Origin: a virus
Taxonomy: Duplodnaviria; Caudoviricetes
Length of the DNA stretch: 29,169 nt
Reading direction: 5' to 3' (one strand)
IMG/VR virus record: IMGVR_UViG_3300024253_000047
Location: 1-29,169 of that record
Position numbers and translations under genes: made by a program. Under the pieces are notes generated by a model. That model had not been told where the DNA came from. It saw only the letters and a program-made list of their open reading frames with translations, and did no database searches. Shown here one piece after another: positions 14,547 to 29,169 of this stretch (the first letter of the stretch is position 1; every line of letters begins with the position of its first letter).

Positions 14547-16097
14547 TTAGGCTCGGACACCTCTGAACTCATAAATTGAAGCACCCATGATTTCGAATTT
14601 AACCGCTATGGCCATTGCATTGATGAGCGCTACAGTCAAATCTATTCGGTCAACTGACTTGTTCTTCATCGGCTTGATATTCTCATTGCCGTCTACTGCT
14701 ATATTCACATTCCCGAAGCACCACCTTGCCAGAGGGTTCTCTTCATGCTCCATCATTCCAGACTTCAGAAGCCTTTCCACTTCCTTCATTGCCGGCGACA
14801 GCTGGGCCATGTTCTGGGCTACCTCCAGCACATCCACTCCCTCGGCTTCAAGCCTCTGTGTGAGCATCCTGCTGTTCCAAGGGTCAGTCCCGAGATACTC
14901 AAACTTGTACTGCTTGCTGAGCTGCAGAATCCTCGACTCGACAAACCCATAGTCTATGACGTTGCCCGGAGTAGCGTGGAGATATCCTCTGTTAACCCAT
15001 CTGTCATAGGGAACTTTGTCCCTTTTGCACCTGATCTTCATGTTGTCTTCTGGTATCCATCCTTCGGATATGAAAACCCACTTGTCTATACCTTCCTGCG
15101 GCGGAAATAAAAGAACCAACCCCGTAAGGTCGGTTGTAGTAGAAAGATCAAGTCCAGGATAGCAGCGCTTCCCCACAAGATCCGCTTTATTTGTTTTGCT
15201 TATCGTCGTATCCCACAATGTCAAAGGCAGCCAGCCAACCTGCTTCAGGGAAACCCACTGGTTGAGCCTGAGCCACCTGAACAGCTTCTCTTTTGCCGGC
15301 TCGTTCCTTGCACCTATGGCTTCCTGCCTCACACTTTCAATGTCTATCGTCACCCCCAGTGAAGGGTTCGCCATATACCAGGTAGCTTCATCGAAGATAT
15401 CTGCCTCCTCCGGCGCGCCGTATATCTTAACGTACCAGTAGGGATCCTCTATTTCTTCCTCCATAACCTTGCGCGCATATTCGTGTACCTCCCAGCCGAT
15501 AGAGTGCTTGTCAGGATCGTCCCCCGCTGTTGTAATAACCCACCAGAGCGGTTCCTTTCTTGCGGCACCTGCACCGAAGGTCATAACATCCCACAACTCC
15601 CTGTTAGGCTGGGCGTGCAGCTCGTCGAATATTACTACGGTAGGATTTATACCATGCTTAGTGAAGGCCTCTGCGGAAAGCACCTTAAGGAATGTCCCGT
15701 TCTTAATGTTCTTGATGTACTTCTTGCTGTCAGTTATTTTGATTATCTTCTGGAGCATCTTGTCCTGCTCCACCATCTGCTTAACTGCATTGTAGGTCAG
15801 TGAAGCCTGATCCCTGTCTGCAGCACAGCAGTAGATCTGACCACCCGGAGGATCGCAGATAAGGTGGTAGATAGCAAGACCGGCTATAGTCGTAGTCTTC
15901 GAGTTTTTCTTGGGAATCTCGAGGTATGCATACCTGTATTGCCTGTAGCCGCTGTCATTGACAGTGCCGTAAACATCCCAGATGATGTCATGCTGCCATT
16001 TCATAAGTGTAAAGGGCTGACCGTAGAAATCGTCCGTTAGATGGAGAAGCTGGATGAACTCTATGACCTCAAGTGCTCTCGCCTTATCATTCACCAT
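14547..16097 (-). CDS. terL: Terminase large subunit
   Basis: Walker A region EIPKKNSKTT, Walker B VIFDELH, ITTAG, nuclease GLDLSTTTDLT, RIDLTVA. Confidence 0.95.
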   Translation of the reverse strand: MVNDKARALEVIEFIQLLHLTDDFYGQPFTLMKWQHDIIWDVYGTVNDSGYRQYRYAYLEIPKKNSKTTTIAGLAIYHLICDPPGGQIYCCAADRDQASLTYNAVKQMVEQDKMLQKIIKITDSKKYIKNIKNGTFLKVLSAEAFTKHGINPTVVIFDELHAQPNRELWDVMTFGAGAARKEPLWWVITTAGDDPDKHSIGWEVHEYARKVMEEEIEDPYWYVKIYGAPEEADIFDEATWYMANPSLGVTIDIESVRQEAIGARNEPAKEKLFRWLRLNQWVSLKQVGWLPLTLWDTTISKTNKADLVGKRCYPGLDLSTTTDLTGLVLLFPPQEGIDKWVFISEGWIPEDNMKIRCKRDKVPYDRWVNRGYLHATPGNVIDYGFVESRILQLSKQYKFEYLGTDPWNSRMLTQRLEAEGVDVLEVAQNMAQLSPAMKEVERLLKSGMMEHEENPLARWCFGNVNIAVDGNENIKPMKNKSVDRIDLTVALINAMAIAVKFEIMGASIYEFRGVRA

Positions 16098-16596
16098 TTC
16101 CAGTCCTTCTCCTTATGAAAGCAGCCATCGGATCATCAGCTTCGTCATTGCCCTTCGCCATACCCACCCTAGCCCTCGATACAGGGTCAAGCAGAAGTAT
16201 CTCCCCATATTTCTTAATCTGCATGGCTGCCTCATTGGCTACAGAAAGCCAGGGGTTCTTCTTCGGCTTGCTCTGGTCCTGCTTGTCGATGTATACCTCT
16301 GTGGTCTTTCTCACATTCTGCATTGCCCTTCTGTAGGTAACAAGAGCCTCGCAGTAGATCTCGAGAGCGTTAACGTCCAGATCCGACAGCAGAGGCTTCT
16401 CAAACTCTCCGTAAAGCTTAACAATCCTTCTCCATTCTTTCTTAGCCCCGTCGCTCAGGTGTGACGGGCATCTCAAAGCATTTGATTTTATGGTAGGCTC
16501 ATTCTCTTTTCGCCTTTCAAGTTCTTCCTTGGTAAGCCTGTTCTTATCGTTAGTCGCCTTCATTACTACATATGGATATGCCTTCCTTCCAGCCAT
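16087..16596 (-). CDS. terS: Terminase small subunit, P27 family
   Basis: MAGRK, PSHLSDGAKKEWRRI, DVNALEIYC, KNPW, LDPVSRAR motifs. Confidence 0.9.
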   Translation of the reverse strand: MAGRKAYPYVVMKATNDKNRLTKEELERRKENEPTIKSNALRCPSHLSDGAKKEWRRIVKLYGEFEKPLLSDLDVNALEIYCEALVTYRRAMQNVRKTTEVYIDKQDQSKPKKNPWLSVANEAAMQIKKYGEILLLDPVSRARVGMAKGNDEADDPMAAFIRRRTGNGE

Positions 16597-16660: not shown

Positions 16661-16685
16661 AAAAAAGGAACCCTAAGGTTCCCTT
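16661..16685 (-). terminator. Intrinsic terminator downstream of the accessory island
   Basis: Minus strand AAGGGAACC-TTAG-GGTTCCTTT followed by more T. Confidence 0.7.
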
Positions 16686-16723
16686 GATTCGCAATATAAG
16701 AAAAATGCGAATTAAGGTTTATA

Positions 16724-17464
16724 TCATTTATAATTATTAAAATGCAATTTCCACGCCTTATTTTTATGCTCTATTCTTCCTCTAATACTTGCTCTGCTTT
16801 TATTCCGTTCAAGGTTATTATACATCTCGTCCATGTTGTTATATTCACCTATAACATAAAAATTTATAAAAATGACTTTATCATCTCTATAAATATTTGA
16901 GAAATCTATTAATAAACCCTTTTGAAGAAGTTCGAATAGTTTATCTTTTATCTCCATATCTATTGGATATATTTTTCTCTTTTTGTTTGTAATAACACTT
17001 TCAATTATTTTATTTGATATTATCTCTCTAAAAATAGACATATCTTTACAATATAATTTACAAAACCAACCATCATCATGAGAAAGATAAACGAAATTGT
17101 TATTTATTCTATCTATAAATGGAGATTTTAAAGGTTCACAAAAATGGGATAAGTATAATACTTCTGCCTTTTCTTCAGGTATGCAATTATTCAGTGCCAT
17201 TTCATCTTTATAATCTATCCAATGAAAATTGCCTAAGCCATACAAATCTTCTTTGCATAGTTCTGAAATGTAATCACCATTAACAGTTTCTAACCACCAA
17301 TTATAATTGAACTTGTTACTGACAAATTTTCCGTCAGTTATTAAAATATTATCTATTGGGTTAGGATTGCAGTTGATAAATTCCTTAAATTCCATACCAT
17401 AAAAAATAAAATACTGTTTATCTATATTTGCATTTATATAAAATACATCCCTTAATTTTCTCAT
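16724..17464 (-). CDS. Hypothetical soluble protein (246 aa), accessory
   Basis: Long AT-rich ORF with RBS GGAAGG; YGMEFKEF, FHWIDY and YLSHDDGWF motifs look like a conserved Bacillota family of unknown function. Confidence 0.8.
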   Translation of the reverse strand: MRKLRDVFYINANIDKQYFIFYGMEFKEFINCNPNPIDNILITDGKFVSNKFNYNWWLETVNGDYISELCKEDLYGLGNFHWIDYKDEMALNNCIPEEKAEVLYLSHFCEPLKSPFIDRINNNFVYLSHDDGWFCKLYCKDMSIFREIISNKIIESVITNKKRKIYPIDMEIKDKLFELLQKGLLIDFSNIYRDDKVIFINFYVIGEYNNMDEMYNNLERNKSRASIRGRIEHKNKAWKLHFNNYK

Positions 17465-17537
17465 AGAATTTCATACCTTCCAATTTTTAATTTTCTAATA
17501 ATGCGGATTATTAGGTTCGTTTAATTTTCATATACTA

Positions 17538-17813
17538 TTATCTAATAAATCTAATAACACTATCAACTGTAATGAATATTCCCACCAATACTCCAAAAAT
17601 TCCAATATATTTTTTGCTTACTTTTATATCTTTTGCACCCATTTTTTCTGACGTTAGCAAGAAAACTATACCAATAAACAGAATATTCAACCCTGACAAT
17701 ATAGACCTGAGATTAGCATTTACATAAATAAAATTAGATAAAACTAATAGGCATAACCCACTAACACTATACAATAATACAAAAATAAAAAATATTTTTT
17801 TATATATTTCCAT
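17538..17813 (-). CDS. Small three-TM membrane protein (probable ATG 17813; ORF track start 17855)
   Basis: Three hydrophobic segments; RBS GGGGTG 4 nt before ATG 17813. Confidence 0.7.
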   Translation of the reverse strand: MEIYKKIFFIFVLLYSVSGLCLLVLSNFIYVNANLRSILSGLNILFIGIVFLLTSEKMGAKDIKVSKKYIGIFGVLVGIFITVDSVIRFIR

Positions 17814-17904
17814 AGAACACCCCACTATTTTTTTTGTTTCGCAACATTCTACCACTATTCGTTTACCTGCTTGGTTCCTGCGAACAATTTAAGAAAGATA
17901 CGAA

Positions 17905-18240
17905 CTAAGAATAAGTATTATCTTTATATTTTCTTATCATTTTAGCTGCAAGAGGACAAAGCACAAGTAACAGAACAAATCCAATAATACCAAGGTATAG
18001 TTTGTTGATAAATAAACCTATCGCCATAATTGTTATTGGAATTAAAAAAGAAAGACACGCGATTGCCCCTAAATAATACTTTTTATAAATTGACCACCCA
18101 ATAATAAAAAAGGCTATAGATAATGTTATTGTTATCACAACTGATGATGAACCTTCTCCGTATGTATTAATAATATATTTATTCAAACCAATTCCTAAAA
18201 AAACCGCTATGACTCCAAGATATTTCATATTTTTCCCCAT
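17905..18240 (-). CDS. Small four-TM membrane protein
   Basis: Four hydrophobic segments in 111 aa. Confidence 0.75.
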   Translation of the reverse strand: MGKNMKYLGVIAVFLGIGLNKYIINTYGEGSSSVVITITLSIAFFIIGWSIYKKYYLGAIACLSFLIPITIMAIGLFINKLYLGIIGFVLLLVLCPLAAKMIRKYKDNTYS

Positions 18241-18339
18241 ATTCTTTCAGTTAATATTAATTCGCAATAATCAACAATTCCGTCTTACTTTAATTATACA
18301 AAAAATTGAATACAATTGTATACCTAAAAAAGGAAGTGT

Positions 18340-18558: not shown

Positions 18559-18763
18559 CCCCTTATCCCTTTAAAGTTGTAGTTCCCTTTACGTATTTCG
18601 GCCTGGTCTACTTCCACAGCCTTTTTAATTCAGGATCCTGCCTTTCCTTTTCGGCGCAATCCATGCAGATGCACTGCTCATTAAACATGCTCATTGTTCT
18701 TCCTGACTTAAGTTCTTGGTGGCATCTGTCGCATAATTTCTGAGTGAAAAATCTGTCTGACAT
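18555..18763 (-). pseudogene. Cys-rich (CxxC...CxCxxC) small protein gene with apparent 1-nt frameshift near 18625
   Basis: MSDRFFTQKLCDRCHQELKSGRTMSMFNEQCICMDCAEKERQDPE, then TAG at 18608-18610; shifted frame continues KKAVEVDQAEIRKGNYNFKGIRG to TGA at 18555-18557. Confidence 0.65.
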
Positions 18764-28080: not shown

Positions 28081-29169
28081 ATGGGAAAAATTAAACAGAA
28101 TCCAAACGGAACATGGACAACAATAGTATATCTTGGACGAGAGGGCGACAAATGCATAAGAAAGAGCGTTACAGCTGATACTAAGGGTCAGTGCAAAGTT
28201 GATGCAGCTGAGCTTGAGCGCAAGTATAAATTAGGCCAGGCAAACCATTATAGCAGCATGAAACTTTCTGAATATATGGATATGTGGCTTCATGACAATA
28301 GAGGGCTGTTTTCTCCTACAACCTTGAGAACTTACAAACTGTATGTTAGAGCTCATTTCAAGCCTTATTTTAAATCTATAAAAGTAGATAAGGTGACTGA
28401 TGCAATGATTAAAAGATACCTATCTGACAAATTAGAAGAACTCTCACCTACTACAGTTCGAAAGCACTTTTTTACACTATCAAGGATGCTCGGCGATGCA
28501 CTCAAAGGCGCTAATCCATGCTTAGGTATCAAGCCTCCTCAGAACGCCCCTTTCAAACCCACAGTGCCAACAGAAGAGGATTTTAACAGAATATATCAAA
28601 CCTTTAAGTCTATAAGTAACGAGGACGAGGCAATAATCCTACTGGCGGGATGGTGCGGATTGCGCCGGGGTGAAATATTCGCCTTGAAGTGGGATGATAT
28701 AAACAGTCAAGAAAGTACTATTCGAATTGATGAGGCCATGGCATTGGAAGAGGACGGATATGACTTTACAGAAAAAGACCCGAAGAGCAGAAATGGTATC
28801 AGGACAATAGCGGTACCAGAGTATCTGATTACACTCTTGGAAGATGTTAAGAAAAACAGGCACAAATTTAGAAGGTGCAAAAAGTATGGGAAAACTCTTC
28901 CTGACATATCCCATCTTGTGTTTCAACAAGACCCCCATAGCTTCACAAAAAAGTACTTCAGAATCATTGATGAACAGAAACTCCCGAGGGTACGATTTCA
29001 CGATCTCCGACATTACCATGCAAGTCTTATGTATAAAAATAATGTTCCGGATCAATATGCAGCCGGCAGGCTTGGACATGATGTGTGGGTACTGAAAAAG
29101 GTTTATCAGCACTTAGGGCTAAAAGAAACTAAAGAGCTCGATGAGAAGATCAAAGATATGTTTAAATAA
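28081..29169 (+). CDS. int: Tyrosine recombinase (phage integrase)
   Basis: Catalytic R (GLRRGEI), K (DPKS), HxxR (HDLRH), H (LGH), Y (KVYQH); N-terminal arm-binding and SAM-like regions. Confidence 0.95.
   Translation: MGKIKQNPNGTWTTIVYLGREGDKCIRKSVTADTKGQCKVDAAELERKYKLGQANHYSSMKLSEYMDMWLHDNRGLFSPTTLRTYKLYVRAHFKPYFKSIKVDKVTDAMIKRYLSDKLEELSPTTVRKHFFTLSRMLGDALKGANPCLGIKPPQNAPFKPTVPTEEDFNRIYQTFKSISNEDEAIILLAGWCGLRRGEIFALKWDDINSQESTIRIDEAMALEEDGYDFTEKDPKSRNGIRTIAVPEYLITLLEDVKKNRHKFRRCKKYGKTLPDISHLVFQQDPHSFTKKYFRIIDEQKLPRVRFHDLRHYHASLMYKNNVPDQYAAGRLGHDVWVLKKVYQHLGLKETKELDEKIKDMFK

Follow-up and report, generated by a model that had tools for sequence, protein, structure and literature searches.

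A three-gene island in a temperate phage reads as a short cassette array bounded by dif-like sites of Clostridia

Results

Putative cassette sites in the phage island

We analysed an island of three genes in the temperate phage record IMGVR_UViG_3300024253_000047 (Duplodnaviria; Caudoviricetes; no host genome attached), whose positions 1-29,169 form the whole stretch of DNA called the window here. The island lies between a DNA methyltransferase region and the gene of the terminase small subunit, and its guanine-plus-cytosine (GC) content is 26%, against 43% window-wide. It holds three unrelated genes, all on the minus strand: gene A (17905-18240), gene B (17538-17813) and gene C (16724-17464). 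A first-pass annotation had proposed that these are single-gene cassettes at a non-attC site family, integron-like or dif-module-like. Our analysis indicates that the island is a short three-gene cassette array bounded by dif-like sites that are widespread in Clostridia, and that gene C moves alone, with breakpoints at these sites.

The sites share one architecture of 28 bp, in which two near-symmetric arms of 11 bp flank a spacer of 6 bp (TTCG-N16-CGAA). All junctions of the island are written on the minus strand. J1 (18259-18286) is a short site, AAGACGGAATT GTTGAT TATTGCGAATT, with both CG in register. J2 (17836-17906) is a long double site composed of X (17879-17906; AGTTCGTATCT TTCTTA AATTGTTCGCA), a 15-nt linker and Y (17836-17863; AACGAATAGTG GTAGAA TGTTGCGAAAC); the stop codon of gene A overlaps the opening bases of X. 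J4 (16686-16713) is again a short site, joining arm a, AATTCGCATTT, to arm a', TATTGCGAATC, across the X spacer TTCTTA. J3 (17500-17510) is a single arm, TAATCCGCATT, the a' arm of cassette C; within the window an in-register left arm is missing and the spacer is non-standard, and the junction looks broken or secondary. J1, J2-X, J2-Y and J4 keep the 11-6-11 frame in register, with a CG spacing equal to that of the host Xer site described below. The motifs quoted in the first-pass annotation are all present where it had placed them, among them a pair at 16692-16716 and 17885-17909 (21/25 positions, 84% identity, 1193 bp apart) and the direct repeat ATTCGCAATA at both island ends (16687 and 18260). 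This repeat is the arm shared by the sites and not a target duplication, and what had been described as two motif types are the arms of one site type, J2 being a double site.

Arm profiles were built from 50 sites, none of them from the window, and the whole window was then scored on both strands. The two top scores of the left-arm profile fell on J4 (24.8 bits) and J2 (23.4 bits), and those of the right-arm profile on J1 (19.9 bits) and J2 (18.3 bits). Over 300 shuffles of the island, the top single score rose as high as 19.0 bits and the second-best score never exceeded 12.5 bits. Hence, the motifs go beyond chance, the arms of J1, J2 and J4 ranking top in the window. The motif at 17491 is weak when taken alone (9.1 bits, inside the shuffle range); relatives break precisely at its edge.

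Movement of gene C

Gene C is about 97% identical over 16684-17502 in sediment contigs from two runs of one study. The three sediment contigs that reach J3 match the window until 17511 and then continue with an a arm followed by TTCTT(A), which identifies J3 as the a' arm of C and implies that C sits there between two direct sites with the same spacer. A reading of J3 as a left arm with a decayed right arm was ruled out, the relatives showing the a' arm of C. The 97%-identical copies have at least two other upstream neighbours, the change occurring at the J3 spacer, and at the other end they diverge at 16684, beside J4. When gene C of the window is compared with locus L005, divergence sets in immediately after the J4 spacer. 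In a set of 80 single-gene pairs, many of them non-independent C homologs, several of the most similar pairs (83-96% identity) break at the spacer or at an arm edge on one or both sides. Gene C thus travels alone, and the three genes are not always one block; breakpoints at the motifs, as the first-pass annotation had predicted, are found for gene C at J3 and J4.

Related phages bear on the same slot. L001-L003 carry a different single gene there, as had been anticipated for related prophages, and their homology with the window resumes at 16691, inside J4. In L001 (2876-3604) the slot gene is glyoxalase/VOC-like by eye, and a degenerate site stands before the shared terminator. The longest contig listed for homologs of gene A and the longest listed for homologs of gene C both measure 326,432 bp. 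Because of this common size the block was possibly preassembled in part: A and C may co-occur on that contig, and some of the block may have come together elsewhere. One-by-one capture within the phage, which the first-pass annotation had put forward, is not borne out.

The site family in Clostridia chromosomes and phages

Homologs of gene C in Clostridia chromosomes are flanked by these arms at constant distances from the start and the stop of the gene, among neighbours that differ. In one chromosomal array (G227:C36), about 55 small co-oriented genes extend over some 30 kb, and iterative profiles located 16 long-form sites among them. A sequence-only model built on 21 sites gave matches in 57 of the 149 scored Clostridiaceae genomes and at least 10 matches in 8 of them; 30 candidates were scored per genome, so that these match counts are lower bounds. 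When 5 seeds were dropped from 39 matches, the 34 that remained were co-oriented with the upstream open reading frame (ORF) in 32/33 cases and with the downstream ORF in 27/33. In 16 further regions, one orientation per region is kept by 50 of 50 sites. The cargo of the arrays, judged from N-terminal sequence, is GNAT/NUDIX/HIT-like. This recurrence at gene boundaries, in the profile scan of Clostridia and phages, agrees with the proposal of single-gene cassettes at a non-attC site family.

The long form consists of two sites back to back, with a linker of 15-19 nt and a total length of about 71-77 bp. The consensus of 51 sites is a near-perfect palindrome made of two inverted 11-6-11 sites around the short linker, with TTCTTA conserved in X, arms TTCGCAAT / ATTGCGAA and inner triplets 8 nt apart; J2 is 63% identical to it. 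One possible reading of long-form arrays is an alternation of gene modules with empty ones. In the 16 chromosomal regions and in the 56 viral stretches described below, where the short sites are direct repeats, we saw no inverted module. In Terrisporobacter (G640; L437, L447), short sites with the spacer TATAAC occur between co-oriented genes. Dispersed repeats resembling repetitive extragenic palindromic (REP) sequences or miniature inverted-repeat transposable elements (MITEs) end in the same arm in several genomes (G203, G065, G137, G119, G238, G246, G083; L162-L170, L133-L161), sometimes with two arms head to head around 7 nt, and often lie between convergent genes.

Among viral sequences, a pattern allowing four spacings matched 16 stretches, 14 of which have the 12-nt spacing of J4; 12 of these 14 lie at tail-fibre modules and the 2 others inside an unrelated ORF, where they look like chance. 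A tighter pattern returned 56 viral stretches, some sharing a contig. In 43 of the 56 the site is in frame and encodes SQ[FY]KDIA[NK], at least two sites are present in 44, and all 110 viral fibre sites are co-oriented (110/110). In the fibre genes the T-rich spacer is on the strand opposite the gene, an arrangement other than that of the window. Long-form patterns produced 0 and 1 matches in viral sequences, the single one lying inside an ORF and attributable to chance. A prophage of G232 (L192:13494-15265) resembles the window in that a GNAT moron ends in a short site and a hairpin directly before HNH and terminase genes; a small tyrosine recombinase is encoded upstream. In gut clostridial phages (L469-L524, L086-L099, L208-L210), the fibre module stands between the in-frame SQFKDIA site and a second direct copy, and extra cargo is sometimes enclosed. 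In several phages (L208-L210, 10100-13300; L492), the last fibre site is followed by a plasmid-like module made up of three small genes and one of 740 amino acids (aa); a XerD-like gene is present in some cases and missing in others.

A candidate recombinase at the replication terminus

No recombinase was found at the array head in G227:C36, at either end, nor at most of the 16 further regions, and a tyrosine recombinase of any kind lies within 7 kb in 16 of the 56 viral stretches. These two observations suggest that the enzyme acts in trans. When the short-site pattern was run on 401 Clostridia genomes, 8 matched, and in 6 of them the match is the identical palindrome, present once, immediately before a Xer-like gene of 330 aa; it is because the cassette-site pattern matched this palindrome that the Xer becomes a candidate. 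Its orthologue is a core, single-copy gene present in 141 of 148 Clostridiaceae genomes (cut-off 1e-40). Of 30 loci, 28 have a palindrome of the TTCG-N16-CGAA type upstream of this gene, 24 of them recognised by pattern and 4 by eye, as do 9/9 further Xer loci. On 5/5 long contigs, GC skew and gene direction switch at the gene or no more than about 16 kb away. The protein scores below the XerS, XerC and XerD cut-offs. From these data we infer that the Xer and its upstream palindrome form a chromosomal dif system; an autoregulatory operator is another possible role of the palindrome. The 11-6-11 palindromes upstream of Xer have lineage-specific arm variants (L372-L407, L419-L427), of the types TTCGCT, TTCGCG, GTCGTG and TTCGCA.

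A published survey reports no dif for two Clostridium species and, for C. botulinum, dif positions 137-175 degrees away from the switch in skew (PMC3025954). The cassette arms match no right-hand arm in the Clostridia dif rows of its file 2. Among 201 genomes, no conserved single-copy a-6-b' site was found. One Xer paralog (L414; G060:C56) is preceded, about 890 bp away, by a perfect 11-6-11 palindrome of its own, with other arms. An IntI-like integrase, NF040815, heads arrays of a separate TAAC...GTTA site type, the cassettes of which hold degenerate dif-like sites nested inside; in G001:C3 (L193:1047-2099 and downstream), the integrase gene is followed by about 60 kb of such cassettes with nested dif-like arms, as also seen in L273, L275, L282, L283 and L285. 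Integrases associated with IS91 were considered as the enzyme and, from a reading of their context, found unsupported.

Phage context and cargo of the island

Upstream of the array, a promoter-like TATACA-18-TATAAT occupies 18293-18322 on the minus strand. The TATAAT that had been noted at 18293-18298 is indeed present, the promoter-like element agreeing with the consensus at 10/12 positions, but such sites occur in this region at chance level (14 against 13.7 expected). This region is not common to the related phages, since homology with L001-L003 stops at 18321; they differ from the window from there onward, so that J1 and the promoter are not seen to be a phage-resident platform. Downstream of the island, a terminator-like hairpin with a T run (16661-16685, minus strand) is phage-resident and is kept in the related phage L001. 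The hairpin proper, at about 16667-16682, folds and the T run follows, but a terminator scan does not list it. The terminase small subunit gene (16087-16596, minus strand; PF05119) is 92% identical in L001-L003 and forms the downstream flank of the variable slot. The prophage tyrosine integrase (28081-29169, plus strand; PF00589 and PF14659) is the only recombinase that a domain scan and tblastn detected in the window. The absence of an IntI-type gene is thereby confirmed.

Gene A encodes a hydrophobic protein of 107-111 aa and has two non-self homologs, at 81% identity. Gene B (91 aa, hydrophobic from its sequence) is rare, with two non-self homologs at 70-73%, and no copies of it were detected in the metagenome contigs searched. 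By their look, both are likely small membrane proteins. Gene C encodes a conserved Bacillota protein of 246 aa with 128 homologs, and no copies were detected in the viral contigs searched. None of the cargo proteins matches Pfam or PHROG, the matches to NCBIfam are all sub-threshold, and the corresponding Atlas clusters are without Pfam. The structure model of gene C is good (predicted local distance difference test, 85.6); Foldseek returned nothing for it at E<=0.001, wider fold searches not having been run. GenBank phages and plasmids gave no useful match, and Rfam no real match to the window. Elsewhere in the window, a NUMOD4/HNH homing-endonuclease-like gene (1709-2248) lies between a holin-like gene and an amidase gene, and a 51-aa gene (18608-18763; phrog_27033) stops short of the equivalent region in L001 and L004, possibly through a frameshift.

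Discussion

We consider it likely that these sites are acted on by some tyrosine recombinase of the Xer family. On the narrower proposal, that the cassettes are dif-module-like and are moved in trans by the host terminus Xer, we are evenly divided. A single Xer would bind both like arms, and the asymmetric, largely shared TTCTTA spacer would set polarity, the arms being near-symmetric. Sites in direct repeat would then excise or take up a circle without being capable of inversion, and the uniform direction of the genes would follow from this. Since J2-X and J4 have the same spacer, they are predicted to give rise to a circle of 1193 bp that includes B and C. The long form might be an empty module between gene modules, or else a fold-back substrate of the CTX attP or attC type. 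The first-pass annotation had left the choice between a host-encoded recombinase and the phage integrase: a host-encoded one is probable, and nothing connects the phage integrase to the sites.

Several observations weigh against this proposal. Within the island, the spacers of J1, J2-Y and J3 differ from TTCTTA, and the homology with L001-L003 ends on the 5' side at 18321, outside J1. Many ends in the set of 80 pairs scatter or stop near the stop codon. An empty site, which had been named as something to look for in relatives, was found in none of the related phages and contigs compared. Contigs, from which rare variants are lost, revealed no excision joint; run X1 may be the sample that yielded the phage record. 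The majority of chromosomal copies, at about 68% identity to the consensus, may be relics. When arm spacings were counted generically in array-intergenic DNA, 12 nt did not stand out as a clear peak (11 counts, background near 6), and larger counts occurred at 22, 27, 31 and 32 nt. As to the enzyme, a strict host-site filter retains the palindrome in only 3/5 terminus regions. The three bases beside the spacer are invariably AAA/TTT, in 84/84 host-site arms, a set that was selected for palindromy, and mostly ATT/AAT in cassette arms. Short sites are present in Terrisporobacter, for which a search at E<=1e-30 did not return this Xer, and in Lachnotalea, which has no closer counterpart than a 35% relative. 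The Xer is near-universal, yet site-rich genomes are few. NF040815 occurs in 4/8 site-rich genomes against 4/141 others (Fisher p=2e-4), an enrichment confounded by seeding, as two of the four supplied seed sites.

The difference at the inner bases is consistent in both cassette and fibre arms and raises another enzyme as a possibility: the cassettes could be moved by a different Xer-family recombinase, carried on a mobile element and preferring the arm TTCGCAAT(T/A). The sites also span clostridial families with differing terminus Xer, and in L208-L210 a XerD-like gene lies about 380-460 bp from the terminal fibre site. We nevertheless hold this to be unlikely. The phage XerD-like protein (L089) was rejected as the enzyme, 0/20 of its chromosomal homologs lying near a high-scoring arm; Xer paralogs were set aside likewise, 11 loci having no cassette-type palindrome beside them; and small recombinases, which we take to be TnpI-like, show no consistent tie to the sites, 24 of 30 loci being without downstream co-oriented arms by eye. 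Array heads free of any recombinase speak against such an element as well. A recombinase of the IntI type is suggested by the layout of the long form, in which arm, unpaired spacer, arm and variable loop follow one another as in attC. The long form would then be a second attC class, recombined as folded single-stranded DNA by NF040815, and the arrays would be clusters of attC sites lacking integrases (CALINs). The consensus does fold as a single long hairpin (-21 and -23 kcal/mol), NF040815 is enriched in site-rich genomes, and long-form-type sites are found inside its arrays. Yet those arrays use TAAC...GTTA sites and contain few long-form sites, for which NF040815 was rejected as the enzyme. 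RNAalifold gave no consensus structure for the long-form sites, although decay of the copies could hide one; covariation was not significant (P=0.10-0.14), only 3/21 copies fold well above shuffles, and J2 does not exceed shuffles in folding (z -0.3). Inner arms are lacking in the short form, and attC sites, with their core RYYYAAC / GTTRRRY, have a 5-bp spacing to the inner box where the inner triplets here are 8 nt apart. We therefore judge a second attC class improbable.

Two further explanations dispense with a dedicated enzyme. The sites could be the ends of MITE- or REP-like repeats, shuffled by homologous or slippage recombination: in several genomes the dispersed repeat class shares this arm and frequently separates convergent genes, deletion between a pair of short direct repeats could turn the long form into the short one, and the copies are degenerate. 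This is hard to reconcile with a strict orientation relative to genes, a fixed 11-6-11 geometry, in-frame sites at the joints of fibre modules (43/56 stretches) and breakpoints at spacers that share only 6 bases, and we give it a small probability. Finally, the palindromic arms precede the start of many C homologs by a constant 15-18 nt, and the host palindrome lies within the Xer promoter region; both would suit operators of a transcription factor that co-regulates imported genes. Arms also stand directly after stop codons, inside fibre coding sequence and at sequence breakpoints; the breakpoint data largely refute an operator, which we consider very improbable.

Compared with known systems, the array is not an integron and would be a variant form of Xer-exploiting gene modules. 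Of the two analogies first offered, the dif module is the better, neither IntI nor an attI beside an integrase being present. In the dif modules of Acinetobacter plasmids (plasmid dif sites, pdif, with XerC/XerD), dif-like sites with a 6-bp spacer likewise bound genes; in those modules (PMC13141974) the host enzyme acts in trans, exchange takes place at identical or near-identical spacers, and modules without an ORF exist. The distinct XerC and XerD arms of canonical dif are not found in the short sites, which have two like arms: the cassette arms are near-symmetric, with no XerD-type arm. The clostridial short sites are direct repeats with co-oriented genes, whereas the Acinetobacter C/D modules alternate and are invertible (PMC13141974). 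In addition, the clostridial sites occur in chromosomal arrays of tens of genes, in prophage morons and in fibre genes, and their enzyme is only predicted. XerS/difSL (see also PMC2731167, PMC2965235) and XerH/difH resemble the candidate host system by having one Xer-type gene with a presumed site in cis at the replication terminus (PMC1914069, PMC5357621). The clostridial site differs in its 28 bp and fully palindromic arms, and the portions seen of PMC1914069 and PMC5357621 describe no cassette arrays for XerS or XerH.

The attP of CTX phage, an integrative mobile element exploiting Xer (IMEX), is like the long form of J2 in having two inverted dif-like sites able to pair within one strand (PMC5357621). 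The long form is shorter, at about 71-77 bp and not about 150 bp, is repeated between genes and is without support from folding or covariation; integration at chromosomal dif, as in CTX, was not seen for the clostridial cassettes. Integrons and CALINs (PMC8618304) resemble the arrays in their tandem single-gene cassettes of one orientation, an upstream promoter, cargo of the GNAT/NUDIX/HIT type and the occurrence of integrase-free arrays; they differ by IntI, attI and another core and geometry, and by a conserved hairpin that the clostridial copies do not clearly show. The Rin shufflon of Bifidobacterium prophages also has short sites at the joints of receptor-binding-protein modules, with a tyrosine recombinase implied; its rix site is asymmetric, 11 bp long and used by an adjacent invertase for inversion (PMC6109161), whereas all fibre sites are direct repeats, in most cases with no recombinase next to them. 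The passages of PMC8138268 consulted add nothing on Clostridia. In open-access PubMed Central and bioRxiv papers (subscription papers and bioRxiv supplements lying outside this search), no such site family, palindromic clostridial dif or dif modules of Clostridia were found, and the literature searched draws no link between a clostridial dif/Xer pair, fibre cassettes and gene arrays.

We put forward, tentatively, that in Clostridia the one housekeeping enzyme that resolves chromosome dimers also works as an integron-like integrase: through a single family of pseudo-dif sites it would assemble chromosomal arrays of tens of single-gene cassettes, supply prophages with morons and exchange tail-fibre modules, and these cassettes would themselves be packaged in clostridial-integron cassettes. 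The window offers a ready substrate in J2-X and J4, which have the same spacer and are predicted to yield the 1193-bp circle. For Clostridium sensu stricto, in which the published survey came up without a dif or located it far away from the terminus (PMC3025954), the palindrome upstream of Xer provides a dif candidate that can be tested. If the proposal holds, Xer-driven modules, which are mainly known from Acinetobacter plasmids, would extend to the chromosomes and phages of Gram-positive bacteria and would there rely on a single enzyme and symmetric arms; this would account for the integrase-less arrays of Clostridia and would tie arrays, morons and fibre swapping to one site.

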